A stretch of DNA of 64,000 nucleotides, taken from assembly GCA_038248985.1 (NCBI GenBank), contig JBBRWV010000001.1, forward strand, positions 3,091-67,090, in the 5' to 3' direction. This DNA comes from Phycisphaerae bacterium (lineage in GTDB: Bacteria; Planctomycetota; Phycisphaerae; WQYP01). Position numbers and translations under genes: made by a program. Below the pieces are notes generated by a model. It had not been told where the DNA came from, searched no databases, and saw only the letters and a program-made list of their open reading frames with translations. Shown in pieces: positions 13,475 to 36,178 of this stretch (within the stretch, counting starts at the first letter, position 1; the number at the start of each line of letters is the position of its first letter).

Positions 13475-16400
13475 ATGGCCCGCAAAAATAAATTCATGAG
13501 CAAAATTACCGCATCGGCCCTCCTGGTCGCACTGATGACCGGCGGCGTCGTTTTGTATCCGGATTTGGTGACGGCCGCGCCGAAGGACGCCAAAACCGTG
13601 CAGACGTCCACCGCTGCCGTGGCCGCCATCAAGACGCTACTCACCCAGATTTCTCAGGCCACTGGCGAAGAATTACGGTCTCCGCTGCGCCTGAAATTGG
13701 TGGACGCATACATGGAGCACGGACGCCCGTTGGAAGCGGCGGCCGAGTTGCAGGTATGGTTGAAGAACAATTCGAAAGCCCCGGAACGCGAGAGGGCTCT
13801 GCTGACCTTGATCAACGCCCAGCGCCAAAGCAATGACTGGGACGGTGCTGCGAGTGTGAGCCGCACATTTATACGCGAATATCCCAAATCCGCATCGCTG
13901 GAGAGCACGTTTTCCGGGTTGGTCGAAATTGCGCGTTATGGGCAGGCCTCCCCCGTAAGCGAAGCCTCCGCCCTGGGCGACTGGGTCGCGGCCAATCCGA
14001 ACGATGCCGCGAACGCCGGACGCATGTTGCGCCAAGCACGTTTACAGGAACAGTCCGGCGCCGTCGCTGAAGCGATTGCCACCCTGCGAAAATTTACCGC
14101 CAAATATCCCAAGGATCCGGCGGCGGGCGATGCCAGTTGGCGCGCGATTTACCTAACCCACGATCGCCTCCGACGCTCCGCCGAAGCCTTTGAGGCCGGT
14201 AAGATTTTCCTGAACGCCAATCCGAAACGCCCCAACAGCAGCAAGGAATGGCAGTGGCTGGGCGACCTGGCCCGTTCCATGGACAATCACCAGGAAGCGA
14301 TTCAGGCCTTCAAGAAGGCTCTGGCGGCTGATCCGACCAATCGAGAGTTGATCAATCAGTTTCAAGATTCTCTATGGCGCACCGGAAATATCCCGGAAAT
14401 GTCCGCGCTCTCCGATTTCATGACCAAGAACCTTCCTTGGGATTCGCAGAATTGGAACCTGCGGCTTGCGCTGGCCAACAAGAGCCTGGACGCCGACGGA
14501 AAAAAGAACGGCCCAGCCGTTCAGGCGGAAATGCTCTCTCTGATCGATAAGGGAGTAAGGCCCGGAGATGCCGCAGGGATCTACGAGCGGGCCTCCCTGG
14601 CTTTGGGAATAGACCCCAAAGTGATCACGGAAACGCTCAAAGGAAAATATGCCCAGGCCAAAAGGGAAGGACGCCGCGAACTGGCGGAACGGATTACGGA
14701 ACTCCTGCGTCGCACGCAGGGGGCGACCATCACCCAGGCCTTTATTGAGACGGAGCTGAAAGAGAATCCGCTCAACAATGGCAACTTGGTGCGCACCTAC
14801 GTTGAGATGTCGGTGAATGATCAGATTTGGGAGACCAACGAAAAGAAACGCACGAAATATGAGCTCGATGGGACAATTAAGAAGATTGCCGAGATTATCA
14901 AACCCTACGCCTATTTGCCTGAATTGCGCAAAGGGATGGAACAGGCCGGGGACGCCCTCCAACGCACCAAGCAGAAAGAATTGACCGTGGTACTGCGGCA
15001 GCAAATCGAAATGCTGTCCCAGACCGAGCTGGCCATACAAGTGGATATCGCCTATCGCGAAGCCCGTCGCGATTGGAAAAAAGCGACCGATGCGCTGACT
15101 ATCCTTTTGAAAGAATCCAAAACCAATCCGGCAGTATTTACCACTCTGGGCCACGATACGATGTGGACCCTGCTGGAACGCACCCCGCCCGAGGGCGTTG
15201 ACAAGGTCCTCGCCTGGTGGGGTGCCCAGGCCGACAGTCGCCCGGATGACATCTGGTTCAACAACATGGTCGGCGACGCATTCCGCCGCTACAAAAAATT
15301 CCCCGAAGCCGTGGTCTTCTATGCCCGCGGCAGCACCGGCACCGTCACCATCGAAAACAGCCAGAACTACAGCCAGGCACTGGGGTCGTTGATTGATGTT
15401 TACAGTTACGAGCTCAAGAAAAATGATGAAGCCGAAAAACTAATCGTCAATTTTGACCGCAACGCAACGTCGTATTCACCCCAGGCACGGCAGGAACGTT
15501 ACCGCCAGTTCGGCGATTTCTACGGCCGCTTGAACGCCCGCGACAAACAAATCAACTACTACCGCAAGGCCGCCGAACTCGGCATGTCCAACACCGGCTA
15601 CGATTCCGTCAAGAACCTCATGATTGTGCTGCCGCCTGCCGAGAGTGTCGCCTACGGTCAGAAGCTGCTGGCCGATGCGGCCTACGACAAATGGTCTCCC
15701 GAAATCGGCCTCATGGTGGCGCACCGCCAGGCCACGGGCTTGAAAGACATGGCCGCCGCCGTCGATACGCTGGCCTTGGCCAATGAAAAGCGCCTGACCA
15801 CCGGCACCTTCGATATGGACAACTGGGGAACATTCCGCGAACTGGTGTCGATGGGCCTTGATCTGGCCGACCCCAAACGCGTGACCGATCCCAAACGCAA
15901 GGAAATGCTCACCGGCATCAAGCCGCTGGAACCCGCCAAGCTGGACCAGCTGCTCGCCCTGGGAATGCAGTGGCTCGGTTCACAGCAGATGCACGAAGTC
16001 GCGCGGGAAATCATCCGCCGGGCCGGCACCTCCGGGGAACGCGGTGCCCAACTGGATATTTTCTCGCAGATTCTGGCACGTACCAAGGCCAATGACGGGT
16101 GGCACTGGGATCGCAACATGGAAATCATCAATGACGAAGTCGCCCGCGGAAATGAGGGGACGGCGTCCACCATGCTCCGATTGCTGCTGAAACAATCCAG
16201 TGGCTACAACGAAGCCGCCCGCTCCGCCGCTCGTTCGCTGCTCCTCAACACCTATAAAAAATTCGGTGAGGATCTGCTGGCGGTCGATGACAAGTCTCCG
16301 ATCGCGCCGCTGCTGAAAGGCGCCAGCTACCTGCGGCTCGGCGAGGAAAAAACCGCCTGGGAGATGTACCAGAAAAACGCGGAACTTTTCGCCCAGAAAA

Positions 16401-19400
16401 TTGACGAAATTCCCAGCGAATACGTGCTTTATATCGGCAATGAACTGGCCACCGGTTCCGATGCCGACCGCGATGTCGCCGAGCAACTGTTGCGCACGTG
16501 GCTGGCCCGCGCCGACAAAATCCAGGGCTTGGAGGGCTCGGTGAAGGCGGCGGTTCAGCTCAAGCTCGCTGACGTCTTCTACTATGGACGCCGCTTTGAC
16601 GTTGCCCGCGCCGAGTACCAATCAGTCATGGACAAGTATCCCGAAACTGCCCAGGCCATCGAAGCGCAGTTCCGCATCGGCGAGTCCTTCATGTACCAGA
16701 AGAACTACGTGGAGGCGACGAAAGTCTTCGAAAAACTGCGGAAAAACAAGGATACCGACATCGCCATCCGCGCGACCTTCATGCAGGGCGTCCTGCAGTA
16801 TGAAACCAACGCCCGCGAAGAAGCCCGGGAAACGTTCAAGGCTGTGCTCGACCTCTCCCCCTCCGAAGAAATCGCCTCCAAAACCCTCTTCCAACTGGCC
16901 TTGATCTACGGCGACGACAACCGCTTCAAAGAAATGTTGGACATGCTCTCGGCCATCGGCAACTACGGCCGCGAAGCCAAACGCTGGCACTCCCCCGGCA
17001 AACCCCTGACCGTCCTCATTCACGATCCGGACATGGCCATCGTTCAGGACGCCCGCTCCGTCCCCGTGCTCGTGACCACGTCCAATGGCGATCGCGAGTT
17101 GATCACGCTCGTTTCCGGCGCCGCCGGCAAGGGCTTCTTTCAGGCCGATCTGCCGACGACCCTGGGTGCCAGCAAACCCAATGACGGAACCCTGCAATTG
17201 CTGGGTTCAGACATCATCACCTATGACTATCCCGACGATTTCAAGGCGAAATTCAAATATGTCCCGCCCCCGCAGGGAAATATCCGCATTGCTGCGGACG
17301 CGACGTTCGCGGTCTCCAACGCCCACATCCAGGAAGAGAGCAAAAGAAGCGCCCTGCAACGCGCCGACAAAGACGGCAAAATCCAACGCCTGTCCGATGA
17401 AGCCAAGGAGTTTCGTGCCAATAACGAAATCAAGCCGGGCAATCCTCTCTACGTCCGCATCGTCGATCCCGACCGCTCCACCAACGTCGGCGTCAATCGC
17501 GTCGAAGTCGTCGCCCGGGCCGGCACCGGCGATACCGTCCGCATGTGGGTAAATGAAACCTCCGCCAACACGGGCATCTTTGAAGGAATGATCAAGACGG
17601 CCGAACGCCCCGCCGAGGCCATCGCTTCCGATAGCTCGCTGGGCAAACTTCCCGGTCTTGCCACCGATAAGGACACTGCCAGTGCGTGGGAGTCGCAACA
17701 CGATGGTCAACCCGGCAAGTGGCTTGCCGCTGACCTCAAAGATGTTTTCTCCATCAAGCAGTTCGCGTTCTCCATGCCTGACGACAAGCAACTCGCTGCG
17801 GCGCGCTTTACCATTGAGTCGTCCAACAACGGTACGTTGTGGACGCCTGTGCTGACGCAGGACAAAGGCAAGATTGCCCACGGACTCACGCTGAATTACG
17901 GTCCGATGCGTCACAAGCACTACGCTTGGAGCAAGGAAAAGGCGAAGTTCGCTGATGCGAAGGCCCCCGAAGATCTCACTTCCTACATCAACACCGTGGC
18001 CACGGCCAAGGTCGCTTCGCTCGACGCCAGCGCCGTCAACACCATGGCCCTGCCCGCCGTCGGCACCGATACCGAAGCGGATGTGCATTCGTTGGTTGGT
18101 TATTTCTTCGTCAACAAAACCGGCGTTCAAACTTTCCACGCCATCACCGGCGATAACGGTTCCGCCGCCCTCGTGATCGACGGCCGCGTAATCGCCGCCG
18201 ACAAGAAAGGCTTCTCGGAATGGGGCGTTGGCGTCGAGTTGACCCGCGGCTGGCACCACTTCGCCGGATTCATCACGTTGCGCGGCGCCTATACCGATCG
18301 CAGCAAGCCCGCCGGTTTCCGTTGCACCCCCATCGACACCTGGGGCGTCGATCAGGCGATGCAATACGCAACAGCCCAGCGCGGCGGTGAGAATGAACCC
18401 ATGCCCGTGCCTTCACTCATTTCCGTGCCCGCCGAGGGAAAACTCAAAGTCGAGGGCGCAACCCTCACGGCTGATTTTTCCGCTGCCCCCATTCCCGGCC
18501 GTCTCTTTCGCGTCCGATTCGAAAAATACAGCGGCGATTTCGTCAGCGTTTCCAACCTGCAAGTCACCGGTGCCGACGGCAAACTCCTTCTGCCCGCCGA
18601 AGGCAGCGTGGTATCCCTCGCCGATGATGACGTACTGCAAGTATCTCCTGGCGAAGACATTTCCGTGAGCTATGCCGATCAGGTCAACACCCGCACCCCC
18701 GGCGAAGCCCGCGCTCTCTCTGGCAAGTTGAAGGCCACCTACTACAACGCCAAAATCGCCGCGATTGCCTACGAGGTAAAATCCACCACTGAAGGCGTGG
18801 AACGTCGCATCAAGGAACTTTACCGGATCGATCCCGGTGATCGCATCATCGCCCACATCACCGATTACGATGAAGACACCTCGCCGGAAATCAACAAGCT
18901 GCAATTCAAGGTACGTTCCGAAAGCGGCGCCGAAGTCGCTCTGGAAGCCACCGAAACCGATGCCACCTCCGGCATCTTCACCAAGGAAATTGAAACTGGC
19001 GAGGGCCTCGGAAAACTCTCCGTGAAACCCGGCGAACGCATCTACCTTATCTATACCGATCGGCAGAACACACAGCCCGGTTCGCGCACCGATCGCGTCG
19101 CTGAACTCTCCGTCGTCAAACCCACCGACGGCCTGGTGAACATCCTGCCCACGCGGGCCGAATTGCCCCCGCCGCCCAAAAAAGATGCCGCCCCCGTATT
19201 CGCCACTGGCGATGGCGTGACCATCGGCGAACCCCGCATAATCTATCTGAAGCCTGAACCCGGGAAGCCCGCGCGTGTGGTGCTCGCCGCCCCGCTCACT
19301 GTCGAAGTCATCGATCAGGATGCCGCCAAGGATTCCCACTCGACGGTGGTGGTGGAAATTACCACGTCTTCCGGCGCCAAATTGAAACTCCCGCTGGAAC

Positions 19401-20965
19401 TCTCAGACCAAACCAGCCAAGGCTCCTGGGGCCACGGTTCCGCCATGGCGGACGGTCGTTTCGTCGGCCAGGCCTTGCTCGTCCTCGGCAAGCCCGATGA
19501 AAACGGCAAGTCCAACACCTCCGTCTCCGTGGAACGTGCACGGCGCCTCCTGGGCGCATGGCGTTACAGCGATGGCGACAATGCCAATTCTGATGCCGGT
19601 TCCGTCAAGGCTCCCGTGCTGCCGATTCTCGGGTCCGACACGATCACTGCGGTCTACAACGATAAGCGTTCAACCAGCGGCGATAACCAGGAACGCAAGT
19701 CCGAAGGACGCATGGTCACCGATGCCACGCTCACGAATCTCGACCGTGGATTCCTCGAACCCGTGGCCACCATTCACCTCGGTGAAAAACTTTACCTCCG
19801 CGTCGAGGATGCCGATCGCGACACCACGGCCGAGCAGGACGAAGTCACCGTGACCCTTACCAGCAACGCCGGCGAGAAACTGGACATCACGTTGAAAGAA
19901 ACCCTGGGTCACTCCGGTACATTCACCGCCGAAGTGCCCACCCATCACGCCACCAAGCCCGACCCTGCCAATGGCACGCTGGATACCAATTTCGGCGACT
20001 CGCTTTCACTGGCCTACGTGGATGACTCGCACACCCAGTCGATGTCACCCATCGAACGCAAACTCAGCATCCAGGTCGCCCTCGGAGCCGATGCAGCGAT
20101 GGCCGCGTTCACCAAGCAGTTCGGCAGCGAGGAAATCGCCGTCGAAACCCAGTTCAAGCTCGCCGAATGCTATTTCGAGATTTTCAAGAGTCAGAATCAA
20201 ATCAAGGCCACCGCCGAGGCCCGCGTCGCCCTCGAATCCGGCCGCGCCATCCTCGCCACCGTCCGTGACAACTACCGCGGCTCCGGGTACGAAGCCCGCG
20301 TGCTCTACCTGCTCGGCGGCTTCCACCAGGAACTCAAGGAACTCGACCAGGCCATCGAATGTTACAACGGCATCATCCGCTCGCATTCCAACAACGCCTT
20401 CGCGCCTGATGCCCAGTACAAACTCGCCCAGTGCTTCGAAGACAAAAATGAGATGGATCGTGCCAGCGAAGAGTATGTGCGGCTGGCCTACACCTACCCC
20501 GATAATCCCCTCATCGCCAAGTGCATGGTCCGCCTGAACGACTACTTCTTCAAGATTAACAAGTTCCAGGTCGCCGCCAACATCTGCGGCCAATTTCTGG
20601 AGCAGTACGGCGAGCATGAACTGGCCCCCAAGATCGCCTTCCGCCAGGGTCAATGCTACTTCAAGGCTGCTGAAACCCCCGTCCGCGAAGGTGAGCCGAA
20701 AACCGATCCGAAGGCTAATTACTTCCTCGCCGCCAAGGCCTTCGATGTACTGGTGGAACGCTACACCGATAGCGACCTGCGTCCCGATGCCATGTTCTGG
20801 GCCGGTCGGGCGTATCATGAGGCCGGTGAGGAAGCCCTGGCGTATCGTCGTTACCGTCGCGTCACCTGGGACTTTCCAGATTCCGATGCCGCACGTTATG
20901 CTCGCGGTCAGTTGACGCTGCCGGCCATGCTCAACGCGGCCAAGGATGATTCCGGCAGCAAGTAA
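13475..20965 (+). CDS. Giant secreted protein (2496 aa): N- and C-terminal TPR arrays, central F5/8 type C (discoidin)-like and PA14-like carbohydrate-binding domains, plus repeated beta-modules
   Basis: Signal peptide (MARKNKFMSKITASALLVALMTGGVVLYPDLVTAAP). Discoidin-like block DKDTASAWESQHDGQPGKWLAADLKDVFSIKQFAFSMP...FTIESSNNGTLW. PA14-like block VGYFFVNKTGVQTFHAITGDNGSAALVIDGRVI...GWHHFAGFITLRGAY. TPR-like C-terminus, e.g. AQYKLAQCFEDKNEMDRASEEY. A recurring module ...G.F.......DG.L...GSD.I...Y.D occurs at least 5 times. Confidence 0.8.
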   Translation: MARKNKFMSKITASALLVALMTGGVVLYPDLVTAAPKDAKTVQTSTAAVAAIKTLLTQISQATGEELRSPLRLKLVDAYMEHGRPLEAAAELQVWLKNNSKAPERERALLTLINAQRQSNDWDGAASVSRTFIREYPKSASLESTFSGLVEIARYGQASPVSEASALGDWVAANPNDAANAGRMLRQARLQEQSGAVAEAIATLRKFTAKYPKDPAAGDASWRAIYLTHDRLRRSAEAFEAGKIFLNANPKRPNSSKEWQWLGDLARSMDNHQEAIQAFKKALAADPTNRELINQFQDSLWRTGNIPEMSALSDFMTKNLPWDSQNWNLRLALANKSLDADGKKNGPAVQAEMLSLIDKGVRPGDAAGIYERASLALGIDPKVITETLKGKYAQAKREGRRELAERITELLRRTQGATITQAFIETELKENPLNNGNLVRTYVEMSVNDQIWETNEKKRTKYELDGTIKKIAEIIKPYAYLPELRKGMEQAGDALQRTKQKELTVVLRQQIEMLSQTELAIQVDIAYREARRDWKKATDALTILLKESKTNPAVFTTLGHDTMWTLLERTPPEGVDKVLAWWGAQADSRPDDIWFNNMVGDAFRRYKKFPEAVVFYARGSTGTVTIENSQNYSQALGSLIDVYSYELKKNDEAEKLIVNFDRNATSYSPQARQERYRQFGDFYGRLNARDKQINYYRKAAELGMSNTGYDSVKNLMIVLPPAESVAYGQKLLADAAYDKWSPEIGLMVAHRQATGLKDMAAAVDTLALANEKRLTTGTFDMDNWGTFRELVSMGLDLADPKRVTDPKRKEMLTGIKPLEPAKLDQLLALGMQWLGSQQMHEVAREIIRRAGTSGERGAQLDIFSQILARTKANDGWHWDRNMEIINDEVARGNEGTASTMLRLLLKQSSGYNEAARSAARSLLLNTYKKFGEDLLAVDDKSPIAPLLKGASYLRLGEEKTAWEMYQKNAELFAQKIDEIPSEYVLYIGNELATGSDADRDVAEQLLRTWLARADKIQGLEGSVKAAVQLKLADVFYYGRRFDVARAEYQSVMDKYPETAQAIEAQFRIGESFMYQKNYVEATKVFEKLRKNKDTDIAIRATFMQGVLQYETNAREEARETFKAVLDLSPSEEIASKTLFQLALIYGDDNRFKEMLDMLSAIGNYGREAKRWHSPGKPLTVLIHDPDMAIVQDARSVPVLVTTSNGDRELITLVSGAAGKGFFQADLPTTLGASKPNDGTLQLLGSDIITYDYPDDFKAKFKYVPPPQGNIRIAADATFAVSNAHIQEESKRSALQRADKDGKIQRLSDEAKEFRANNEIKPGNPLYVRIVDPDRSTNVGVNRVEVVARAGTGDTVRMWVNETSANTGIFEGMIKTAERPAEAIASDSSLGKLPGLATDKDTASAWESQHDGQPGKWLAADLKDVFSIKQFAFSMPDDKQLAAARFTIESSNNGTLWTPVLTQDKGKIAHGLTLNYGPMRHKHYAWSKEKAKFADAKAPEDLTSYINTVATAKVASLDASAVNTMALPAVGTDTEADVHSLVGYFFVNKTGVQTFHAITGDNGSAALVIDGRVIAADKKGFSEWGVGVELTRGWHHFAGFITLRGAYTDRSKPAGFRCTPIDTWGVDQAMQYATAQRGGENEPMPVPSLISVPAEGKLKVEGATLTADFSAAPIPGRLFRVRFEKYSGDFVSVSNLQVTGADGKLLLPAEGSVVSLADDDVLQVSPGEDISVSYADQVNTRTPGEARALSGKLKATYYNAKIAAIAYEVKSTTEGVERRIKELYRIDPGDRIIAHITDYDEDTSPEINKLQFKVRSESGAEVALEATETDATSGIFTKEIETGEGLGKLSVKPGERIYLIYTDRQNTQPGSRTDRVAELSVVKPTDGLVNILPTRAELPPPPKKDAAPVFATGDGVTIGEPRIIYLKPEPGKPARVVLAAPLTVEVIDQDAAKDSHSTVVVEITTSSGAKLKLPLELSDQTSQGSWGHGSAMADGRFVGQALLVLGKPDENGKSNTSVSVERARRLLGAWRYSDGDNANSDAGSVKAPVLPILGSDTITAVYNDKRSTSGDNQERKSEGRMVTDATLTNLDRGFLEPVATIHLGEKLYLRVEDADRDTTAEQDEVTVTLTSNAGEKLDITLKETLGHSGTFTAEVPTHHATKPDPANGTLDTNFGDSLSLAYVDDSHTQSMSPIERKLSIQVALGADAAMAAFTKQFGSEEIAVETQFKLAECYFEIFKSQNQIKATAEARVALESGRAILATVRDNYRGSGYEARVLYLLGGFHQELKELDQAIECYNGIIRSHSNNAFAPDAQYKLAQCFEDKNEMDRASEEYVRLAYTYPDNPLIAKCMVRLNDYFFKINKFQVAANICGQFLEQYGEHELAPKIAFRQGQCYFKAAETPVREGEPKTDPKANYFLAAKAFDVLVERYTDSDLRPDAMFWAGRAYHEAGEEALAYRRYRRVTWDFPDSDAARYARGQLTLPAMLNAAKDDSGSK

Positions 20966-21011: not shown

Positions 21012-21839
21012 ATGAGTTTTCTAATCACACTGGCGCAAGCGGCATCGACTGCGGCCACCCAAGCCGCCTCCAACCCCGCCACCGTCACCCAGACCACCGA
21101 AAACGCCAAGGCTTGGTATGAGTACGGCCTTATCGGCTGGTACTACAACGGTGGCTTCTTCATGATTCCACTCTTCCTTTGCCAGGTCATCGGATTGGCG
21201 ATCATCATTGAACGCATCCTCGCCTATCGCGCGATCTCCATCGATACCTCCGGCTTCCGCGCCAAAATCGCCGCGTTGCTCTCCGGCGGAAAGGTCGATG
21301 ACGCACTGGTGCTCTGCGACACCACCCCCGGCCCGGTCTCCGCGACCATCGCCGTCGGCCTCCGCCGTTTCAAACTCCTTCGCGTCCTCGGTAAACCCGC
21401 CGATCAAATCGAGTCTGAAGTGTCCAAGGCCGTCGATGATTTCGGCGTTCACATCATCGCGATTCTCGAGAAGCATCTCCCGCTCCTCGCGACTGTCACC
21501 GCCCTGGCCCCGCTCTTCGGCTTCATCGGCACCGTGTACGGCATGGTCGAAGCCTTCGATGCCATCACCCAGGCCGCTGGCTCCGGCAACATCATTCTGG
21601 TAACCGCGTCCGGCATCAAGGTGGCGTTGCTCACCACCGTCCTGGGCCTCTGCATCGCCATCCCCGCCCAGTTCTTCTACAACGCCTTCTCCAACCGTGT
21701 CAACGGCTTCGTCCTCGAAGTCGAAGAATCCGCGACGGAGCTGGTCCAGAACCTCGCACTCATGTCGGCTCTGGGCGATTCGGCGATCACGTCGAGCCCC
21801 GCCGACGCCAAGGCAGTTCTAGCGACCACCACGGCCTGA
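21012..21839 (+). CDS. exbB: MotA/TolQ/ExbB proton-channel family protein
   Basis: Three-TM topology with conserved C-terminal region LAPLFGFIGTVYGMVEAF...ALLTTVLGLCIAIPAQFFYN, typical of ExbB/TolQ. Confidence 0.9.
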   Translation: MSFLITLAQAASTAATQAASNPATVTQTTENAKAWYEYGLIGWYYNGGFFMIPLFLCQVIGLAIIIERILAYRAISIDTSGFRAKIAALLSGGKVDDALVLCDTTPGPVSATIAVGLRRFKLLRVLGKPADQIESEVSKAVDDFGVHIIAILEKHLPLLATVTALAPLFGFIGTVYGMVEAFDAITQAAGSGNIILVTASGIKVALLTTVLGLCIAIPAQFFYNAFSNRVNGFVLEVEESATELVQNLALMSALGDSAITSSPADAKAVLATTTA

Positions 21840-21879: not shown

Positions 21880-22338
21880 ATGTCCATCCCGCGCAAGAAA
21901 AAATCTGCCGTTGAAATCCCGCTCACGTCCACCGCGGACGTGGCGTTTCTGCTGCTCGTGTTTTTCCTGGTGGCGGCCTCCAACGCGGTCGAAAAAGGTG
22001 TGCCGCTCGACCTGCCCAATACCAGCAAAACCCAGGAGAAAAAGAAGTCGGAAAACCTCGAGGTCGGCATCACTGTCGATGCGATCACCCTCGGCGGTGA
22101 GCCTCTGGCCAATGAAAATTCCCTCCAGGAAGTTCTGCGGGCCAAACTCGCCGGCGTTACCGAGCCCTCCCTCCGCGTCGTCGTCGTAACTGCCGCCGCC
22201 GCCGTGGATTACCAACGCTGGACCCGCTTCATCGCCGAAGTGGAAATGGCCGGCGGCATCCCCGCCCCACAGATCGAAGAAGAGGAAACGCGTCCCGCCT
22301 CTGGTAGCGGCCCGGTCGACGGGGGGGAGGCCAATTGA
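21880..22338 (+). CDS. exbD: ExbD/TolR biopolymer transport protein
   Basis: N-terminus EIPLTSTADVAFLLLVFFLV, the ExbD TM with conserved Asp, plus a periplasmic domain. The stop overlaps the start of the next exbD (ATGA at 22335-22338). Confidence 0.85.
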   Translation: MSIPRKKKSAVEIPLTSTADVAFLLLVFFLVAASNAVEKGVPLDLPNTSKTQEKKKSENLEVGITVDAITLGGEPLANENSLQEVLRAKLAGVTEPSLRVVVVTAAAAVDYQRWTRFIAEVEMAGGIPAPQIEEEETRPASGSGPVDGGEAN

Positions 22339-22751
22339 AGATCCAGCGCGCGCAAAGACTTAACGCCACGATCCCCCTCTGCAGCACTGCGGATATCGCC
22401 TTCCTGCTACTGATATTCTTCATCGTGCTCTCCAAGAACGCCAATGAATCCTCGCTCGAATGGCTCCCCGCCGAGTCTCCCCAACTCCTCGTCGACGCGG
22501 ACAACTCCGTCGTCACCGTCATCATCGATAAAAAATATGACGTCTTTGTTAACGGCCACGAGGTCGCGCCCTCCATGGTGAAATCCGTCGTACAGTCTTA
22601 TCTCGGCGACCGCGCGCCGGGCTTACGCAAAGTCCTTTTGAAAATTGATAAAGACGTGCCCGAGCGTGTCTTCGGCAAAGTATTGTTGGATATCGGCGAA
22701 GCCGGCGGTGACATCTTCCGCGCGCTCGATACCGTTTCTGAAAAGAAGTAA
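22335..22751 (+). CDS. exbD: ExbD/TolR biopolymer transport protein (second paralog)
   Basis: N-terminus ATIPLCSTADIAFLLLIFFIVL followed by a periplasmic domain. Translationally coupled to the upstream exbD. Confidence 0.85.
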   Translation: MKIQRAQRLNATIPLCSTADIAFLLLIFFIVLSKNANESSLEWLPAESPQLLVDADNSVVTVIIDKKYDVFVNGHEVAPSMVKSVVQSYLGDRAPGLRKVLLKIDKDVPERVFGKVLLDIGEAGGDIFRALDTVSEKK

Positions 22752-22790: not shown

Positions 22791-23207
22791 ATGGCGACGA
22801 TCAGCAATCTGAAAACCGGCGTGAAGGGAACCGCCAAAGAGATCCAGGAATTCGTGGCCTCTCTCAAAGGCCGCACACCTGCTGAAGCCATGGGCGTCGT
22901 CGCCCAAAGTCACCTCCTGCAGGCCATTGTCATCTCCGTGCTCGTTCAGGGTGGCATCATGGGGCTATCCTGCGGCATCGCTTATTACAGAGGTGACCCT
23001 CCCGCGCCGGTGGCCCCCGTTATCGTGGCCCCCGCGCCGGCCAACCCCCGGCCCGCCCCCGTACCGGCCGCCACCAACACCGCAGCCACTTCCGCCCCCT
23101 CCGAAGACGCCATCAAGAAAGTCATGAACACCGACATCATCAAACCGGAAGACCAGACCAAAAAAGGCCCCCGCGATGTGGATGACATTCTCAACAACTT
23201 TCGCTGA
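22791..23207 (+). CDS. Membrane-anchored proline-rich protein: TonB/TolA-like N-terminal anchor plus rod, lacking a recognisable C-terminal TonB domain
   Basis: Single TM (LLQAIVISVLVQGGIMGLSCGIAYY) followed by the Pro/Ala-rich segment PPAPVAPVIVAPAPANPRPAPVPAAT and a short charged C-terminus. Position in the operon is that of tonB/tolA. Confidence 0.5.
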   Translation: MATISNLKTGVKGTAKEIQEFVASLKGRTPAEAMGVVAQSHLLQAIVISVLVQGGIMGLSCGIAYYRGDPPAPVAPVIVAPAPANPRPAPVPAATNTAATSAPSEDAIKKVMNTDIIKPEDQTKKGPRDVDDILNNFR

Positions 23208-23604
23208 ACGTGTCTCCCTCCGTGTCCCTTTCCTAACCTCCGACAGGAATTGAATTCTGGAAACGTCACCCTCCCAACCTCGCTTTACCTTCCGCAAGGC
23301 CAGCTCCCTCAAGCCGCCGACCGGTATCGGCCGCCTGTTCACCGGCATCAATAACGCCCTCGAACGTCTCTGGGAGATCAGCAAGCCCTACATCCTGGCC
23401 GTCATCGGTCCGGTCGTAAACCTGGTCACCAAGTCGTTCCGCCGCAATGACAAAGAATGGAACCCCGCCCGGTCCGATGCTTGGTACTATGGCAAACGCG
23501 ATGCCCGCTTCTATCACGGCCTCACCTGGTCCGCCCTCATCCAGGGACTCGTCCTCCTCTGGTTCACGGTCGGCATCGGCCTCACCGGCTGCAATGAATA
23601 CCTG

Positions 23605-24510
23605 ATGCCCGCTGGCGGCGGCACCACCGCCGCCATGGCCAAACAGATGATGAAGGTCAAAAAGGTCAAAATCGTCAAAAAAACCCGGCAGATCGTCAAC
23701 GTCAATTCCCCTATCATTTTTCAGCGGCCGGATATCGACAAAATGATGGAAGAAAAAGTCACCAAAGTTCTCGAGCAGGGCACCGCCAATCTCTACAAGC
23801 AAGGCATGATGGGTTCCGGCAGTGGCGACTCCGCCGGCTTCTCCAGCGGTCGTGGCGTCGGCGAGGTCGGCCTCATCCGCCTCAAGTATTCCGGCGGCGG
23901 AGATTGGGATTCCAACTTCGGCAAAGGTGCCGACAACAATATGCTCTTGGAATACCACCTGCTTTCCGAACAAAAAACCGCCAAGGAATCCAAAGCCATT
24001 CCCATCATTGGCTTCGACGGCCTCAATTCGTATAAGAAATATTACGCACCGCCCATGGTTTACCTTACCGGCTCAAAAGGCCTCGACCTCAGCGACAGAG
24101 AAATCACAACCATCCGCAAATACATCGAGGAAAACCACGGCATGATCTTCGCCGACGCCGCCTCGCCCGCCTGGGGCCGTTCCTTCCGCGAAAACATAAT
24201 GCCCCGGATTCTCCCCGACGTGAAAGCCGTCGCCATCCCCATCGATGACGAAATCTACACCGGGCCCTTCGCGCTCACCTCCATGCCCTACGCCTCGCCC
24301 CATGACCAACCCATGGTCATGCGCGGCTGGAAAATCAACGGCCGCTGGGTCGCCATTTATCACCCCGGCGATATCGGCGATTGCTGGAAAGACGGTCACG
24401 CCGGCGTCTCCGGCGAAACCGCCACCGCCGCCTATGCTCTGGGGGCCAATATCATCTTTTACGCCCATCGCACGTATAATGAATGGCGTACTGAAAATAA
24501 GGTTAAATAA
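23605..24510 (+). CDS. DUF4159-like domain protein. The ORF is open upstream to 23254 and encodes two predicted TM helices, so the start is probably upstream and non-ATG.
   Basis: Blocks IRLKYSGGGDWDSN, PPMVYLTGSKGLDLSDREITTIRKYIEENHGMIFADAA, INGRWVAIYHPGDIGDCWKD and ALGANIIFYAHR fit my recollection of DUF4159 conserved blocks. The frame upstream of ATG 23605 has no stop back to TGA 23251 and encodes ISKPYILAVIGPVVNLV and LTWSALIQGLVLLWFTVGIGL (TM-like). There is no ATG, GTG or TTG in that stretch; only ATT at 23254 and CTG at 23257. Confidence 0.6.
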   Translation: MPAGGGTTAAMAKQMMKVKKVKIVKKTRQIVNVNSPIIFQRPDIDKMMEEKVTKVLEQGTANLYKQGMMGSGSGDSAGFSSGRGVGEVGLIRLKYSGGGDWDSNFGKGADNNMLLEYHLLSEQKTAKESKAIPIIGFDGLNSYKKYYAPPMVYLTGSKGLDLSDREITTIRKYIEENHGMIFADAASPAWGRSFRENIMPRILPDVKAVAIPIDDEIYTGPFALTSMPYASPHDQPMVMRGWKINGRWVAIYHPGDIGDCWKDGHAGVSGETATAAYALGANIIFYAHRTYNEWRTENKVK

Positions 24511-24512
24511 GG

Positions 24513-26159
24513 ATGTCGATGCGTACTTTGCACCGGACAAGACGTTTTTCCCCCGCCCTGCCCGCACTCGCCTTGGCAGCACTCTGCGCCCTCTTCCCGG
24601 CGGCTCAGTCCCCTGCCCGCGCCGATGAACCCGGCCTGCTCTCCAAGGAACGCTGGACCAACCTCACCGAAATCCAGTTCGCCGAACTCAAGTCCGCCGA
24701 AGACACATTCCGTAAAAAAGCCTACACCGCCGCACGTAACGCCTATGAAAAATTCATGACCGTCAACAGCAAGTCCGATGTCGCCACCTATTGCCAGTTG
24801 ATGATGGGCGAATGCCTCCGCCTCAACGGCAAACCCAACGAAGCCATCTCCGACTTTCAGTTCGTCCGCGATCTCGCCGAAGATTCCGATGATGCCAAGT
24901 GGGCCTACCTCCGCATCGCCCAATCCCACCGCCAGGCCGGCAACGCCGAAAAAGCCGCCCTCATCTATAAGGAAATCTTCAAGGACAACGGCACCCACGT
25001 CACCGCCTTCGTTGCCGTCCTCGAACTCGTCGACGTGCTCGAGAGTCAAAACAAACTTCGTGACCGCGCTCCCTATCTCGACGACTTCGCTGAACGCTTT
25101 CTCAAAAAACGCTATGACGGCTGGGCGTATCAACGCGCCATCCACACCCTCGCCTATGAAAAATTGCTCGCCGGTTCGCCCGACGTCGCCTTCACCCTCC
25201 TCAAAACCGTCGAAAAATCCGCCGACGCCGAACGCACCGTTCTCAACATCGGCTCCAACGCCGTCCGCGATCTCAGCACCAAGGAAACCGTCAACCGTCG
25301 CGATGCCCTCGCCGAAGCCCTCACCAACATGGTCATGGCCTGGCTCCGCGAAAATAAGGACCGCACCAACCACCAGGATCTCACCCGCGGCGTCGTCTTC
25401 CTCTACATCAACATCGGCAAGGGCGAAGAGGGTGCCAAGCAGGCCCTCGCCGCGCGCAAAATCTACAGCGATGCCCGCTGGACTCTCGAACTCATGGTCG
25501 ACCTCTACCGCCACGATAAAAAAATGGACAAGGCCGTCGCCACCGCCTCCGAAGCCCGCCGCATCCACAAAGATGCCGACTGGACCCTCGACATGTACGC
25601 CGAACAACTCAAAGACAGCGGCGACCTCGGCCAGGCCGTCTCCGCCTGGGATCTCATGAAGGACCGCAGGCACGCCCTCTTCCGCAGTTCTGATGCCCTC
25701 CGCCACGCCGGAAAAATTACCGAGGCCATCGAACGGCGCCGCAAGATTTCCGAGCTTGACCCTACGGCTGGCTCCGAAGTCGCCATGTGGATCGGTGACG
25801 TGCTGGAGCAATCAGGCAAATACGATGAAGCCATCAAGGAATACCTGCTCGCCCAGAACGAACCGCGGAATCTCTACCAGATTGCCGAATGCAAATCCAA
25901 ACAGAAAAAATACAAGGAAGCCATCGAGCAATACTCCACCATCGCCGCCGCCTTTGAAAAAGAAACTCCCGAGGCCATGTATCGCATGGCCCTCGAGTAC
26001 GAAAAACTCTCCGACACCACCACCGCCATCAATTTCCTCCGCCGCATCTGCCGCACCTTCCCCAAGTCGCAGGCCGCCTCCAGCGCCCACGTCCGCCTGC
26101 AATCCAAATACAAAATCGATGAAACCCTCGGCGGTTCCGAAGGCGACAAGAAAGACTGA
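24513..26159 (+). CDS. Secreted TPR-like repeat protein (548 aa), in CpoB/YbgF-like position at the end of the exbBD cluster
   Basis: Signal peptide (MSMRTLHRTRRFSPALPALALAALCALFPAAQSPARA). TPR-like helical repeats throughout, e.g. AYLRIAQSHRQAGNAEKAALIYKEIF and EAIKEYLLAQNEPRNLYQIAECKSKQKKYKEAIEQY. Start is 3 bp after the DUF4159 stop. Confidence 0.75.
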   Translation: MSMRTLHRTRRFSPALPALALAALCALFPAAQSPARADEPGLLSKERWTNLTEIQFAELKSAEDTFRKKAYTAARNAYEKFMTVNSKSDVATYCQLMMGECLRLNGKPNEAISDFQFVRDLAEDSDDAKWAYLRIAQSHRQAGNAEKAALIYKEIFKDNGTHVTAFVAVLELVDVLESQNKLRDRAPYLDDFAERFLKKRYDGWAYQRAIHTLAYEKLLAGSPDVAFTLLKTVEKSADAERTVLNIGSNAVRDLSTKETVNRRDALAEALTNMVMAWLRENKDRTNHQDLTRGVVFLYINIGKGEEGAKQALAARKIYSDARWTLELMVDLYRHDKKMDKAVATASEARRIHKDADWTLDMYAEQLKDSGDLGQAVSAWDLMKDRRHALFRSSDALRHAGKITEAIERRRKISELDPTAGSEVAMWIGDVLEQSGKYDEAIKEYLLAQNEPRNLYQIAECKSKQKKYKEAIEQYSTIAAAFEKETPEAMYRMALEYEKLSDTTTAINFLRRICRTFPKSQAASSAHVRLQSKYKIDETLGGSEGDKKD

Positions 26160-28558: not shown

Positions 28559-29863
28559 ATGTCGCTCAACATCACCATCCTCGCCGCCGGTGCCGCCGGC
28601 ATGTATTGCGGCTCCTGCCTGCGCGACAACGCCCTCGCCGCCTCACTCCTCCAACTCGGCCACCGCGTCACCCTCCTCCCCCTCTACACACCCCTCCGCA
28701 CTGATACCCCCGACGTCTCCAACCCCCACATCTTCTACGGCGGCATCAACGTCTACCTTCAACACGCCTCCAAACTCTTCCGCATCACCCCCCGCATCTT
28801 CGACTGGCTCTTCGACCGCCCCTTCCTCCTCACCATGGCCGGTTCCATGGGTGCCGGCACCCACCCCTCCAAACTCGCCTCCCTCACCCGCGACATCCTC
28901 CTCGGCTACAACGGCCCCACCCACAAAGAACTCCGCCGCCTCATCGCCTTTCTCGCCTCCGACATCCAACCCAACATCATCACCCTCCCCAATCTCATGT
29001 TTGCCGGCATGGCCCAGGCCTTCGTCGAAAAACTTCACTGCCCCGTCATCTGCGAACTCACCGGCGAAGATCTCTTCCTCGACGCCATGGCCGAATCCGA
29101 CCGCAACAACATCCGCGCCCTCATCCGCCAAACCACTCCCCACATCGCCCAGTTTGTCGCCACCTCCCACTACTACGCCCAAAAAATGTCCACCTACCTC
29201 GACCTCCCTCCCGAAAAAATCACCATCATCTACCCCGGCCTCCCCGGCGAAATGCTCGACACCCCCAAATCTCCCTCCTCACCCCTGAGTCCTCAACACT
29301 TGAATCTCACCTACCTCGCCCGCATCTGTCCCGAAAAAGGCCTCGACCAACTCGCCGACGCCTTCCTTCTCCTGCAAAAACTCCCCCACACCGATCACAT
29401 CCACCTCCACTACGCCGGCTACCTCGGCCCCGCCTACAAAGCCTGGCACCATGCCCTGCAACAGCGCCTGCACCACGCCGGCCTCGCCGCCCGCGTCCAT
29501 TACCACGGCACCGTCGACCTCGCCGGAAAAATATCCCTCCTCGATAACGCCCACCTCTTTTGCGTCCCCACTCACTATCCCGAATCCAAAGGCATCTTCG
29601 TCCTCGAAGCCCTCTCCCGCGGCGCCCCCGTCCTCGCCCCCAACCACGGCTCATTCCCCGAGATCGCCCAACTCACCAGCGCCCTCGACCTCACCCCGCC
29701 CCACAACCCCCAACTCCTCGCCGAAAAAATCCACTCCCTCCTTCACAATCCGCAGCGCCTCCAATCCCTCTCCCAGAACGCCCGCCCCTCCATCGAAACA
29801 CACTTTACCGCCCGACACATGGCCACCCAGTTCGCTAAACTCTGCATCCAACTGCAAAACTAA
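28559..29863 (+). CDS. Glycosyltransferase family 1 (GT4-like, group 1)
   Basis: C-terminal GT-B domain with LFCVPTHYPESKGIFVLEALSRGAPVLAPNHGSFPEI (E-x7-E-like motif region). Confidence 0.8.
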   Translation: MSLNITILAAGAAGMYCGSCLRDNALAASLLQLGHRVTLLPLYTPLRTDTPDVSNPHIFYGGINVYLQHASKLFRITPRIFDWLFDRPFLLTMAGSMGAGTHPSKLASLTRDILLGYNGPTHKELRRLIAFLASDIQPNIITLPNLMFAGMAQAFVEKLHCPVICELTGEDLFLDAMAESDRNNIRALIRQTTPHIAQFVATSHYYAQKMSTYLDLPPEKITIIYPGLPGEMLDTPKSPSSPLSPQHLNLTYLARICPEKGLDQLADAFLLLQKLPHTDHIHLHYAGYLGPAYKAWHHALQQRLHHAGLAARVHYHGTVDLAGKISLLDNAHLFCVPTHYPESKGIFVLEALSRGAPVLAPNHGSFPEIAQLTSALDLTPPHNPQLLAEKIHSLLHNPQRLQSLSQNARPSIETHFTARHMATQFAKLCIQLQN

Positions 29864-29881: not shown

Positions 29882-30592
29882 TTGATAGAATCACACACTA
29901 TGCAAATCGAAATCACCAACCTCTCCAAGTCCTACCCGACCCCCACCAACCCCCTCGAAATCCTCCGCGACCTCACCCTCCTCATCCCCTCCGCACAATC
30001 CACCGCCATCCTCGGACCCTCCGGCTCCGGAAAATCCACCCTCCTCAACATCCTCGGCACCCTCGACACTCCCACCTCCGGCTCCGTCGCCTTCCTCCCC
30101 CGCGACCGCTCCTCCCCGCTTAGCCCCCTCACATTCGCCCCCGCCGCCCTCGCCCAATTTCGCGCTGCCTACATCGGCTTCGTCTTCCAGGACCACCACC
30201 TCCTTCCCCAGCTCAACGCCCTCGAAAATATCCTCCTCCCCAAACTCGCCCTCGGTGGGGGGGCTGCATCTTCCAAAGAATCCTCCGATCGCGCCGCCTG
30301 GCTCCTCGCCCGCATCGGCCTCGAATCCCGCCGCTCCCACCTCCCCACCCAACTCTCCGGCGGCGAACGTCAACGCATCGCCATCGCCCGCGCCCTCATG
30401 AACGCCCCCTTCCTCCTCCTCGCCGACGAACCCACCGGCAACCTCGACCCCCACACCGCCGACTCCATCATTTCCCTCCTCCTCTCCATCGCCACCGAAA
30501 CCGCCGCCACCCTCATCGCCGTCACCCACAACCCCGCCCTCGCCGAGCGCTTTCAAAAATCCTACACCATGCACAACGGCCAACTCGCCTGA
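29882..30592 (+). CDS. ABC transporter ATP-binding protein, LolD/MacB/FtsE-like
   Basis: Walker A GPSGSGKSTLLN, Q-loop, signature LSGGERQRIAIARAL, Walker B LLLADEPTGNLD and H-loop VTHN. The start could also be ATG 29900. Confidence 0.9.
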   Translation: MIESHTMQIEITNLSKSYPTPTNPLEILRDLTLLIPSAQSTAILGPSGSGKSTLLNILGTLDTPTSGSVAFLPRDRSSPLSPLTFAPAALAQFRAAYIGFVFQDHHLLPQLNALENILLPKLALGGGAASSKESSDRAAWLLARIGLESRRSHLPTQLSGGERQRIAIARALMNAPFLLLADEPTGNLDPHTADSIISLLLSIATETAATLIAVTHNPALAERFQKSYTMHNGQLA

Positions 30593-30650: not shown

Positions 30651-33600
30651 TTGAAACTTCGCACCCTCATCTTCCGCACCCTCGCCCACTACCGCGCCCT
30701 CAACGCCGCGCTCCTCCTCGCCATCGCACTCGCCACCGCCGTCCTCACCGGCTCCCTCCTCGTCGGTGATTCCGTCCGCCATTCCCTTCGCACCCTCGCC
30801 ACCCAACGTCTCGGCCCCGTCGAATCCGTCCTCCTCGCTCCCGATTTCGTCGACATCTCCCTCGTCGAACGCCTCAACGCCGATCCCGATTTCGTCGCCT
30901 TCTACGGCACCGCTCACGCCGGCATCACTCTCCAAGGCCGCATCGCCGATGTCGCCACCAATCTCTCCGCCTCCTCCGTTTCCGTTTTCGCAATCGATCA
31001 CCCCGACTCCCAAATCCCTGCCGGCAAAACCATTCTCAATAATTCCCTCGCCGACCTCCTCAACCCCGCCCCCGACGCCGCGCTCCACCTCACCATCCCC
31101 GCGCCCGTCAGCATCCCCCTCGACGCCACCCTCGCCCGCCGTTCGCGCTCGGACATCCTCGCCGCCGCCAACGTCTCTCTCGACCGCATTGTCTCTGGCC
31201 CCAGCTTCCTCTCCCTGTTCTCCCTCGCCCCCTCGCAACGCTCCCCGCGCAACCTCTGGCTGAACCTTCGCGATCTCCAATCCGCCATCGACCGCCCGCA
31301 CGCCGCGAATTTCTTCATCTTCACGCGCGACAAACCTTCCGCATTGCCACCTCCCACCCGATCCTCCTCCGACGCCCTCAAAAAACACTTCACCCTCGCC
31401 GACTACCATCTCGCCCTCCAGAAAAACCCCGCCACCGCGCAACTTGATCTCACCTCCACATCCACGTACCTCCGCCCCTCCGTCCTCACCGCCCTGCAAA
31501 AAATCGCCCCCCACGCCCAGCTCTTCTCCACCAACCTCCTCACCCAAGTCACCCTCGCGCCCCCCCCGTCTCAGCCCTCTGCCCCCACACCTCAGCCTCT
31601 CCATTACGTAATCGCCACCGCCACCAACGCGCCCCTCACCGGCAGCGGTGGGGGGGAGGGGGCGGCCCTCAACGACCACGAAGTGGCCATCAACCAGTGG
31701 ACCGCCGACCAGCTTCACGCCAAAGTCGGCGACACCCTCTCCTTCGCATTCCTGCGCCGCATCCCGGATGGTACCTTGCGGGAAATGCCCTCCTCCAAAT
31801 CCTTCACCATCGCCGCCATCCTCCCCCCCGATCATCCCCTCGCCACCGATCCCGCGCTTACCCCCAACTACCCCGGCCTGACCGATTCCGATTCCGTCGC
31901 CGATTGGTCCCCTCCCGAAGGCTTCCCCTTCAATCCCAAACTCGTCACCCCCGCCGATGAAGACTATTGGAAAGACCATCGGGCCGCCCCCAAAATCTTC
32001 CTCCCCCTCTCCGCCTCCAACCTCTGGGCCACCCCCCTGGGCACCATCACCTCTGCCCGCCTGCCGGTGGAAATCCCTCCCGAAAATCCCCAATCAGCAA
32101 TGGGCCATTGGCCGTCGGCAATATTGCAGGCCCTCAACCCCGCCGACTTCGGCTTCTCCTTCCAACCCCTCCGCAAGCAGCAACTCGCCGCCGCCTCCGG
32201 CTCCACCGATTTCTCCGCCCTCTTCCTCGGCTTCTCCTTCTTCCTCATCTTCTCCGCCCTCTGCCTCCTTGCCCTCCTCGCCAAACTCGCCGTCGAACAA
32301 CGCCTCCCCCAACTCGGCCTCCTCGCCTCCCTCGGCTTCTCTCCCCAAAAAATCACCCGCTCCCTCCTCGCGGAATTCCTCTCCCTCGCCCTCCTCGGCA
32401 CCCTCCTCGGCACACTCGCCGCCATCGTCTACACCGCCCTCATCATCCACCTCCTCACCACTTGGTGGCTCCCCGCCGTCGGCACCACCGCCCTGCACCT
32501 CCATCTCTCTTCTGCCTCCCTCCTCCAAGGCCCCGCCATCTCCCTCTTCATCACCGCCCTCACCCTCTTCCTCTCCCTCCGCAAATACGCCCACCGTTCC
32601 CCCATCTCCCTCCTCACCGGTACGCCTCCACAAAAAATCAGCACGCGCAAACCGCCTCTCGCTCCCCCCAAAAAAACCTTGAAAATTGTACCTTGTACCT
32701 TGAACCTTCGCCGCCTCGCCTCCCGCAACAACCGCCTCCACCCCACACGCTCCTTCCTCATCATCGCCCTCCTCGCCTCCGCCTCCTTTCTCCTCGTCCT
32801 CGTCGCCTCCATGAAGCAACTCCCACCTGCAGACCCCTCCCTCACCCCCTCCGGCACCGGCGGCTTCCGCCTCATCCTCACCGCCGACATCCCCCTCCTC
32901 GGCAATCTCAACACCCGCGAGGGCCGCCAACTTCTCGCCCTCAAAGACCCCCACAACCCCCTCCTCTCCCGCGCCCACTACACCAACCTCCGCGCCTCCC
33001 CTGGCCAGGACATCTCCTGCCTCAACATGACCCAACCCACCCAACCCGCCATCCTCGAATTTCCCCCCGGCATCCTGTCCCGATTTCTCATCTCCTCACC
33101 TCCCACACCTTTAGCAGAACTCCGCAATCTCTTAACCCCTCTCACCGGCCCTATCCCCGTCTTCGCCGACCAGGACACCGCCCAGTACATCCTCCACCTC
33201 CACTGCGGCGACTCTCTCCCCTTCACCGATCAATCCGGCCAACCCCGCACCCTCCAACTCGACGCCACGCTCAGCGGCTCCATTTTTCAATCCCAACTCC
33301 TCATGGACTCCGCCCATTTCTCCGCCCTCTTCCCCCTCCAAACCGGCTACTCCGTCGTCCTCATCGAATGTCCCGAGGAAGACGCACTCCCCCTGCAAAA
33401 ACTTCTCGAATTCGAACTCGCCGATTTCTCTGTCTCCGTCGAACCCACCACCGCCCGACTCGCCCGCTACAAAGAAGTCGCCAACACCTACCTCGCCACC
33501 TTCCAATCTCTCGGCAGCCTCGGTCTCCTCCTCGGCACCCTCGGCCTCGCCATCGTCCTCCTCCGCTCCACCCTCGAACGCCGCGCCGAACTCGCCCTCC

Positions 33601-33960: not shown

Positions 33961-34733
33961 ATGCCTGTTCCCTCCGCCATCCTCCAAGATCCACGCTTCC
34001 AACTCATCACCGCTGACACCTTGCCCCCTGCGCTTATTGAAAATCCTCTCCACCCCCAACCCCGCCAAATTCACGAGTGGTTTCTGGAAAATAATCTCCC
34101 CACCTCACCCACCACCTCGCCTCCCACCTGGTTCCCCCCCTCCACCTCCTGGCCCTGGTGGCCCGCGAAGTATCTTTACCCCGCCCCGGACATATCCTCT
34201 GGATTGGCCGCAGATGTTGGCCCACCTTTCAAATGCTCTCCGATCCCGTGGCCCACAGCGCCCTGCTTCAACACAGCATCTTCCTTGACCCCGCCACCGA
34301 TGATGAACGCTTCTGGGCCATTGGCCAGGCCTTCCGCTGCCCCGGCGTCCGCGTCGTGGTCGCCGATGGAGCGAACCTTTCCCCCACCCTCAGCCGACGC
34401 CTCCAATTGGCCGCCGAAGCGGGTCACACCGTCGGATTATTGGCCCGCCCCTTGTGGGAACAAGATGTCCCCTCCTGGGCCCACGCACGCTGGCTCGCGA
34501 AACCCCAACCCTCCGGGCTTGCCTCTTCCCCGGGCGCATCTTCCTGGCAAATTGAACTCCTGTGCTGCAAAGGGCACCCAGCGGGCCACGACGCTTCGCC
34601 GCAATGGATATTGGATTGGAAATACGAGGTGTTCCGTGGAACAAATACTTTCCATCTTTCTACCCTCCTGGGATGTGGATCTGCATCAACGCAAATCCCC
34701 GCCCCCCAAAAATCCAGTCTTAAAATCGCGTAG
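33961..34733 (+). CDS. imuA: ImuA (SulA/RecA-like mutasome component), apparently frameshifted. The N-terminus is in frame 1 (33961 to ~34136) and the rest in frame 3 (to 34733), with a C7 homopolymer at 34134-34140.
   Basis: Frame 3 carries the ImuA hallmark VVVADGANLSPTLSRRLQLAAEAGHTVGLLARP and ILWIG...ERFWAIGQAFRCPG. The frame-1 start (ATG 33961, good RBS, SOS box) encodes TLPPALIENPLHPQPRQIHEWFLE, resembling the ImuA N-terminal region. Inserting one C into the C7 tract fuses both parts into a ~258-aa ImuA-sized protein. Confidence 0.7.
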
Positions 34734-36171: not shown

Positions 36172-36178
36172 GTGCAAT

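Follow-up and report, generated by a model that had tools for sequence, protein, structure and literature searches.

The DUF4159 gene of a Phycisphaerae ExbB/ExbD cassette probably begins at a near-cognate ATT codon upstream of its annotated start

A gene for a DUF4159 protein is located at positions 23254-24510 of a 64,000-nucleotide stretch of DNA from a Phycisphaerae bacterium (contig JBBRWV010000001.1 of assembly GCA_038248985.1). This whole stretch is called the window here, and features are on its forward strand unless stated otherwise. The gene raises the question of where its translation begins. The deposited product is a 301-aa protein (P0001) that starts at the ATG at 23605, and the same call has been made in NCBI, JGI, and Logan. 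The region 23100-24600 was re-read in all six frames. The frame of this ATG is open back to a TGA at 23251-23253, and none of the 117 codons from 23254 to 23604 is ATG, GTG, or TTG. ATG 23605 is thus the earliest canonical start. These features had been described in an original prediction made from the letters of the window, and they were reproduced. The first two codons after the TGA are ATT (23254) and CTG (23257). It appears that the real gene is 23254-24510 (418 codons and a TAA), that it starts most likely at ATT 23254, and that its product is membrane-anchored and motor-associated. The probability of this reading is put at roughly 0.7. The true start is almost certainly the rare ATT, or the adjacent CTG, and not ATG, GTG, or TTG.

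A search over 5.8 billion proteins returned 428 relatives. Alignments were made of a 14-sequence set, an 85-sequence family set, and the four closest lineages. All of the aligned homologues except P0001 itself extend 5' of the position equivalent to ATG 23605, and the homologues cover 93-100% of the full-length open reading frame (ORF). Three relatives, P0002 (415 aa, 60% identity), P0003 (415 aa, 59% identity), and P0004 (409 aa, 50% identity), align from the first residues of this ORF. The annotated ATG (23605-23607) encodes Met118, which is inside a conserved C-x-E-Y-x-M-P-A-G-G-G sequence. The family motif around this residue is G-C-x-E-Y-x-M-P-A-G-G-G, also written G-C-x-x-Y-x-M-P-A-G-G-G. 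Across the 85 sequences, C113, P119, G121, G122, and G123 are invariant. A76 is also invariant in this set, and both A76 and C113 precede all canonical starts of this frame. In the four closest lineages, invariant residues run from S7, R14, W40, and P45 through C113, again all 5' of every canonical start. The annotated 301-aa model is wrong, because ATG 23605 sits within the invariant motif and all homologues extend upstream of it. The conserved protein can only be made by initiating at a non-canonical codon. The gene-model problem that had been suspected, with non-canonical initiation as its source, is therefore supported. Homologues beginning at the equivalent of 23605 had been named as the observation that would count against it, and no homologue begins there.

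Internal initiation at ATG 23605 was considered and rejected. There is no Shine-Dalgarno (SD)-like core upstream of this ATG, and the codon is part of the invariant motif. Other searches added no sequences to the comparison. Scans of genome contigs with one alignment query and one single-protein query found no relative, and a metagenome scan re-found the known JGI contigs and nothing further. Exact-protein look-ups of P0001 and of the 138-aa protein encoded upstream of it returned the same two contigs and no additional strain variants.

A run of 117 codons with no canonical start is not unusual for this genome. Start-less runs of 165-230 codons are present inside 4 of the 36 other confident genes, and a naive probability of 2e-4 for 117 start-less codons is misleading because of these longer runs. 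They are in frame within the genes at 30651-33854, 8330-9547 (minus strand), 28559-29863, and 29882-30592. Start-poor coding is a general trait of the genome, and other start-codon mutations would likewise lack a nearby canonical rescue start. It is the position of the run that is the anomaly. Among the ORFs of the window with a high GC content at third codon positions (GC3), every other one reaches its first canonical start after 34 start-less codons at most. Annotation of the opposite strand has also been affected. In the related contig L001, the 5' coding region left out of the gene has been given an 83-aa antisense gene by the JGI caller (L001:2662-2913, minus strand, corresponding to about 23266-23517, minus strand, of the window). 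This antisense gene is a secondary artefact of the missed non-canonical start. The window itself has a 235-aa antisense ORF at 23266-23973.

An SD-like core, AGGA, is present at 23245-23248. It is located 5 nt before the ATT (23254-23256) and 8 nt before the CTG (23257-23259). The confident genes of the window have AGGA(G) 5-8 nt upstream of their ATG, and an SD-like core was found at 14 of 35 gene starts versus 10% of background positions. ATT 23254 and CTG 23257 had been proposed as the only candidate initiators. This does not hold for the codons as such, since further in-frame ATC or CTG codons are present at 23326, 23335, 23347, 23377, 23392, 23395, 23404, 23422, 23539, 23575, and 23602. 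However, an SD-like core precedes none of the other in-frame near-cognate codons of the extension, and to that extent the claim stands. Compared with shuffled controls, the RNA around the start has less structure (z +1.46).

The start can also be located by comparison with orthologous loci. The gene start reads ..GAGTTGA ATG TCC in L003 and L004 and ..GAGTGA GTG ACC in L006, and L005 also has an ATG. The N-termini in L003/L004 and L006 are not extendable because an in-frame TGA immediately precedes the start. This layout, TGA-ATG in L003/L004 and TGA-GTG in L006, is the same as that of the window, where the TGA at 23251-23253 closes the frame just 5' of the start and the region reads ..GGAATTGA ATT CTG. 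In the nucleotide alignment, TTGAATT of the window lies over TTGAATG of L003. Thus, ATT 23254 is at the orthologue start position and is one G-to-T change from ATG. The codon found where the orthologues have their canonical start is therefore a near-cognate one, and an SD lies at a suitable distance upstream. We infer from these alignments that ATT is the codon that is probably used.

Initiation at CTG 23257 instead of ATT 23254 is possible and would give a protein that is one residue shorter, and it is a good deal less likely than initiation at ATT. The protein alignments absorb one extra codon and place the orthologue Met opposite Leu2 of the window ORF, as is the case for Met1 of P0002 and P0003, so CTG 23257 stays a candidate. 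Its 8-nt SD spacing is within the range observed for the genome, and CTG starts have been documented (PMC2830850). However, the nucleotide match described above makes the ATT a mutated ATG, and in L003 and L006 the start codon directly follows the in-frame TGA, as the ATT does and the CTG does not.

Two other routes to the N-terminal region were rejected. In one, translation from upstream in-frame ATGs (about 23176 and 23182) would pass TGA 23251 by read-through or recoding. However, this TGA is the end of the upstream gene here, in L003, and in L005, and translation of the orthologues begins immediately behind the corresponding stop. The other, a +1 frameshift from the TTG at 23250, was also set aside. 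The gap between the AGGA and this TTG is only 1 nt, and in-frame homology begins by residue 5.

Starts of this type are known from other bacteria. The infC and pcnB genes of E. coli start at AUU (PMC5499595, PMC3592434). In Deinococcus, the starts of dnaA (ATC) and rpsL (CTG) were shown by N-terminal proteomics after a similar misannotation (PMC2830850). The window gene is like these genes in that its conserved N-terminal residues have no canonical start, a near-cognate codon lies behind a normal SD, and automatic callers truncate the gene or misplace its start. Reporter expression from AUU is 6-8 times below that from AUG, and IF3 depresses AUU more strongly than any other codon (PMC3592434, PMC5499595). 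As in the known AUU and near-cognate genes, low and IF3-sensitive translation would be expected for the window gene (PMC5499595, PMC3592434, PMC2830850).

The restored N-terminus had been described as a double transmembrane (TM) anchor. Only one robust helix is present, together with a weak and poorly conserved hydrophobic or amphipathic stretch. The first stretch, ISKPYILAVIGPVVNLV (aa 42-58, 23377-23427), has a Kyte-Doolittle 19-mer maximum of 1.18 and probably does not span the membrane. P0002 has no hydrophobic peak above 1.0 at this position, and in the AlphaFold2 (AF2) model the stretch belongs to a long helix, H24-59. The second stretch is a conserved TM helix (aa 90-112, 23521-23589) with a 19-residue Kyte-Doolittle mean of 1.81, an AF2 helix at 84-110, and an equivalent hydrophobic peak in every homologue checked. 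The double-TM wording should give way to one conserved TM helix that ends in a lipobox-like G-C. No NCBIfam model matches the DUF4159 protein at E <= 1, and Pfam finds DUF4159 only, with no curated double-TM domain.

The TM helix is preceded by a conserved, positively charged juxtamembrane motif, W-N-P-x-x-x-D-A-W-Y-Y-G-x-R (23458-23499). In the 14-sequence alignment, its P71, A76, Y78, and G80 are invariant. In the 85 sequences, P71, W77, Y78, Y79, and G80 are nearly invariant beside the fully invariant A76. The family has a net charge of +2.5 before the last helix and -1.8 after it. By the positive-inside rule, this bias points to an N-in/C-out topology with a periplasmic DUF4159 domain. A Lys-rich linker of about 90 aa, which is predicted to be partly disordered, follows the helix, and pLDDT (the model's predicted local distance difference test) is low at residues 111-142. 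Distant relatives have two to four extra N-terminal hydrophobic segments, and the subclade of the window thus has a reduced N-terminus.

The helix ends in a lipobox-like L-T-G-C (L110 to Cys113, 23581-23592). The criterion used for a lipobox was [LVI][ASTVI][GAS]C after a positive n-region and a hydrophobic h-region. In the 85-member family alignment, the motif is [LIMVF]-x-G-C. Position -3 is always L, I, M, V, or F, position -1 is G in 84 of 85, and the Cys is present in 85 of 85. A positive stretch followed by about 20 hydrophobic residues and [LIMVF]-x-G-C is a likeness to bacterial lipoproteins, the substrates of Lgt and LspA. Judged from the motif, the G-C may be a site for signal peptidase II inside the protein, or the Cys may be conserved for its function.

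The DUF4159 domain (Pfam PF13709) is encoded at 23872-24465. It corresponds to aa 207-404 of the 418-aa ORF (E 4.9e-24, 85.4 bits versus a gathering cut-off of 25.9, profile positions 2-201 of 202). The domain has a class-I glutamine-amidotransferase (GATase1)-like alpha/beta fold, which it shares with a solved family member, 4I66 (Hoch_4089 of Haliangium ochraceum). It is GATase1-like and apparently non-catalytic. The 4I66 protein has 200 residues, which is about the size of the DUF4159 domain alone, whereas the window protein and more than 400 relatives add the N-terminal membrane segment, the invariant G-C, and the Lys-rich linker. No published function was found for DUF4159, and a full-text literature search gave the Pfam paper only.

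The original prediction also held that the N-terminus ties the protein to an ExbB/ExbD motor, which is encoded just upstream. Independent support for this comes from a comparison of the close relatives L003 and L005. The flanking proteins of these loci are 94-99% identical, with a nonsynonymous divergence (pN) of 0.007-0.03. In contrast, the block that encodes ExbB, ExbD, ExbD, the small protein, and DUF4159 codons 1-112 (L003:2700-5340) is 52-77% identical. In this block, pN is 0.15-0.33 and synonymous divergence (pS) is 0.49-0.69, versus a pS of 0.33-0.42 in the well-conserved flanks. The right-hand breakpoint of the block is the end of the TM helix. The motor and the membrane segment at the N-terminus thus behave as a single unit in evolution. 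On these alignments, the block is most simply read as a recombinational swap of a membrane module, and its divergence argues that the segment dropped by the annotation is the part that works with ExbB/ExbD.

The predicted architecture of the protein is also that of TonB/TolA-type transducers, with neighbouring ExbB/TolQ and ExbD/TolR proteins, an N-in helix, a linker, and a periplasmic domain. In planctomycetes and their relatives (the Planctomycetota-Verrucomicrobiota-Chlamydiota, or PVC, group), transducers with a TM helix, a linker, and a vWA domain have been proposed (Williams-Jones et al., Mol Biol Evol 2025), and their head is described as vWA (PMC12204202). The putative N-in TM helix, disordered linker, and globular periplasmic domain of the window protein are a likeness to both TonB/TolA and the PVC vWA transducers (PMC12204202). 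By their description, the PVC transducers are also alike in gene order, with the gene 3' of a TPR gene, a tolQ/exbB-like gene, and two different tolR/exbD-like genes (PMC12204202). A TM segment that diverges together with the motor genes is a further likeness to TonB/TolA-type transducers. The window protein differs from the TonB, TolA, and vWA transducers in its GATase1-like head, and no vWA, TonB-C, or TolA-C fold was among the listed best matches of its C-terminal domain. It also differs in that an extra small TM protein is encoded between the second ExbD and the DUF4159 gene.

Several observations weigh against the favoured reading of the start and of its product. The non-canonical codon is known from one lineage, in two near-identical variants, and the orthologues have ATG or GTG. 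Cross-species conservation of the unusual codon, as for the AUU of infC, was looked for and was not found, with ATT present in the window, L001, and L002 only. The codons of infC and of Deinococcus dnaA and rpsL are conserved across species, whereas the ATT here is lineage-specific. In this it is unlike the infC AUU, a conserved regulatory feature, and it could be a recent, mildly deleterious mutation. The SD spacing does not separate ATT from CTG, and the DNA alignment points to ATT while the protein alignment points to CTG. The lipobox-like motif is also atypical for lipoproteins. Position -2 is Q or R in 28 of the 85 sequences, and the Cys is 112-231 residues from the N-terminus (median 194), whereas in bacterial lipoproteins it is at about 15-35 residues. 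In the 85 members, the Cys is too far in for a signal peptide at the extreme N-terminus. Lastly, the TM helix of the family has no conserved His or SHLS, and before the helix the consensus of the 85 sequences is Q-S where the window has H-G. TonB-like docking is thus only an analogy.

It is also possible, but improbable, that the start codon was simply lost through a change from ATG to ATT. The gene would then be a young pseudogene, or it would give a truncated, unanchored, cytoplasmic product from ATG 23605. The canonical starts of the orthologues and the confinement of ATT to one lineage favour this, and 23605 is picked by all gene callers. However, the 117-codon frame is intact, and the SD is kept at ATT/CTG while 23605 has none. 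GC3 is 0.79 in the 117-codon extension versus 0.72 in the rest of the gene, and relative to L003 the extension has a pN of 0.40, which is below its pS of 0.73. Identity in the N-terminal part is about 0.6 times that in the C-terminal part, both for pairs that include the window protein and for pairs of canonical-start orthologues. Unique deviations were counted at alignment columns where 90% or more of 81 distant relatives agree. There are 0 in the N-terminal part of the window protein and 10, mostly conservative, in its C-terminal part, and the GTG-started P0004 has 11 overall. The N-terminal part thus has neither excess divergence nor a unique loss of conserved residues. There is no relaxed constraint in the substitution patterns, and nothing in them points to decay. 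A product from Met118 would also have neither the TM helix nor the invariant Cys, and it would carry no signal for the export of a domain that is apparently periplasmic.

Both population variants retain the extension. A Logan contig (SRR19962012) is identical to the window over 3.9 kb and has the same ATT CTG. A JGI contig (3300009083) has 9 single-nucleotide polymorphisms (SNPs) over 5.4 kb and also has the same ATT CTG. Only one of these SNPs falls in the extension, and it leaves the amino acid unchanged (CGG to CGC at 23472). An assembly error had been offered as one explanation of the missing start, and it is rejected, since ATT CTG is identical in contigs from these two different samples. 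A sequencing or assembly error that made the ATT or shifted the frame of a sequence with a canonical start is thus highly improbable, for although consensus errors are possible in metagenome-assembled contigs and an out-of-frame TTG is present at 23250, the 420 nt 5' of ATG 23605 match in both contigs bar the synonymous SNP of the JGI contig, the in-frame alignment with orthologues from residues 5-7 leaves no room for an indel, and the TTG is 1 nt from the AGGA core in a frame that stops after 33 codons.

The DUF4159 gene is the sixth gene of a cassette with the order giant TPR protein, ExbB, ExbD, ExbD, small TM protein, DUF4159 protein, and TPR protein. The giant TPR protein is encoded by a 2497-codon ORF (13475-20965). 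Equivalent TPR / F5_F8-type-C proteins of 2369-2579 aa are upstream of ExbB in all related loci. An ExbB/TolQ/MotA-family proton channel follows (21012-21839; Pfam PF01618, E 2.5e-24). Next are two ExbD/TolR-family proteins (21880-22338 and 22335-22751; Pfam PF02472, E 2.3e-19 and 7.1e-13, respectively). The small bitopic protein of 138 aa (22791-23207) has one TM-like stretch and a Pro/Ala-rich tail and is in the same position in all six loci. The last gene encodes a 548-aa TPR protein (24513-26159) that matches Pfam TPR families. The cassette is kept in six loci, including three orthologue lineages, a Haloferula-type genome, and a Phycisphaera metagenome-assembled genome. It is conserved in Planctomycetota and Verrucomicrobiota.

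The 138-aa protein has no Pfam or NCBIfam match. It possesses a conserved N-terminal segment, E-x-x-x-F...L-K-G-x-x-P, and an acidic C-terminus. Its TM-like stretch opens with S-H-L in close lineages and with S-Q-L or S-D-L in distant ones. This protein might be a minimal TolA/TonB-like partner. The 548-aa TPR protein scored 76 bits with TIGR02795 tol_pal_ybgF (YbgF/CpoB), which is under the cut-off of 90.1. With this sub-threshold similarity to YbgF/CpoB and with ExbB/ExbD, the cassette has a Tol-Pal-like flavour. A second large TPR protein (10912-13383, 823 aa) with YfiO/BamD-like TPR matches adjoins the giant TPR gene upstream, and it may belong to the same envelope cassette. A promoter/terminator scan was at chance (4 versus 4.6 and 19 versus 18.6) and has no bearing on an operon either way.

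Elsewhere in the window, 33961-39415 contains an ImuB-like gene (IMS family) and a DnaE2-type polymerase III alpha gene, which form an error-prone repair cassette. The ORFs of these two genes, taken from their first canonical starts, overlap by about 450 nt (35717-36171). The start of dnaE2 is therefore probably downstream of 35717. Searches of the window with Rfam at the gathering threshold and with ARAGORN gave no hits.

If the gene is expressed as proposed, the ATT at 23254 would be read as Met by the initiator tRNA, with CTG 23257 as the second candidate, and the AGGA at 23245-23248 would serve both. The product would possess a cytoplasmic N-terminal region of about 90 aa and the one TM helix with its lipobox-like G-C. 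The Lys-rich linker would then lead to a periplasmic, GATase1-like DUF4159 domain. The membrane segment may dock on the proton-driven ExbB/ExbD motor in the manner of TonB or TolA. The weak start codon might hold synthesis low relative to the motor subunits. A more far-reaching proposal, which is speculative and rather unlikely, is that the DUF4159 protein is the periplasmic output arm of a PVC-specific ExbB/ExbD-driven envelope machine, a TonB/TolA analogue with an unrelated, GATase1-like head. Its helix would dock on the motor, and this would account for the joint divergence of the motor genes and DUF4159 codons 1-112. It would possibly be processed at the G-C, and in this lineage the ATT would be no accident but a selected, IF3-sensitive throttle on stoichiometry.

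Near-cognate starts and DUF4159 are both already known. The locus is a rarity that provides one more example and no new mechanism. It is a well-supported comparative example of near-cognate (ATT/CTG) initiation beyond infC and pcnB, in an uncultured lineage, and it shows the systematic truncation of near-cognate-start genes by gene callers. The deposited 301-aa model drops the membrane helix, the invariant Cys, and the juxtamembrane motif, and from it the protein would mistakenly be taken for a soluble one of the cytoplasm. With the correction, the gene encodes a protein that is anchored in the membrane and probably periplasmic, in keeping with its ExbB/ExbD neighbours. The conservation of the cassette, the lipobox-like motif, and the divergent block of motor and anchor lead to testable hypotheses for DUF4159 and for the PVC envelope cassette.

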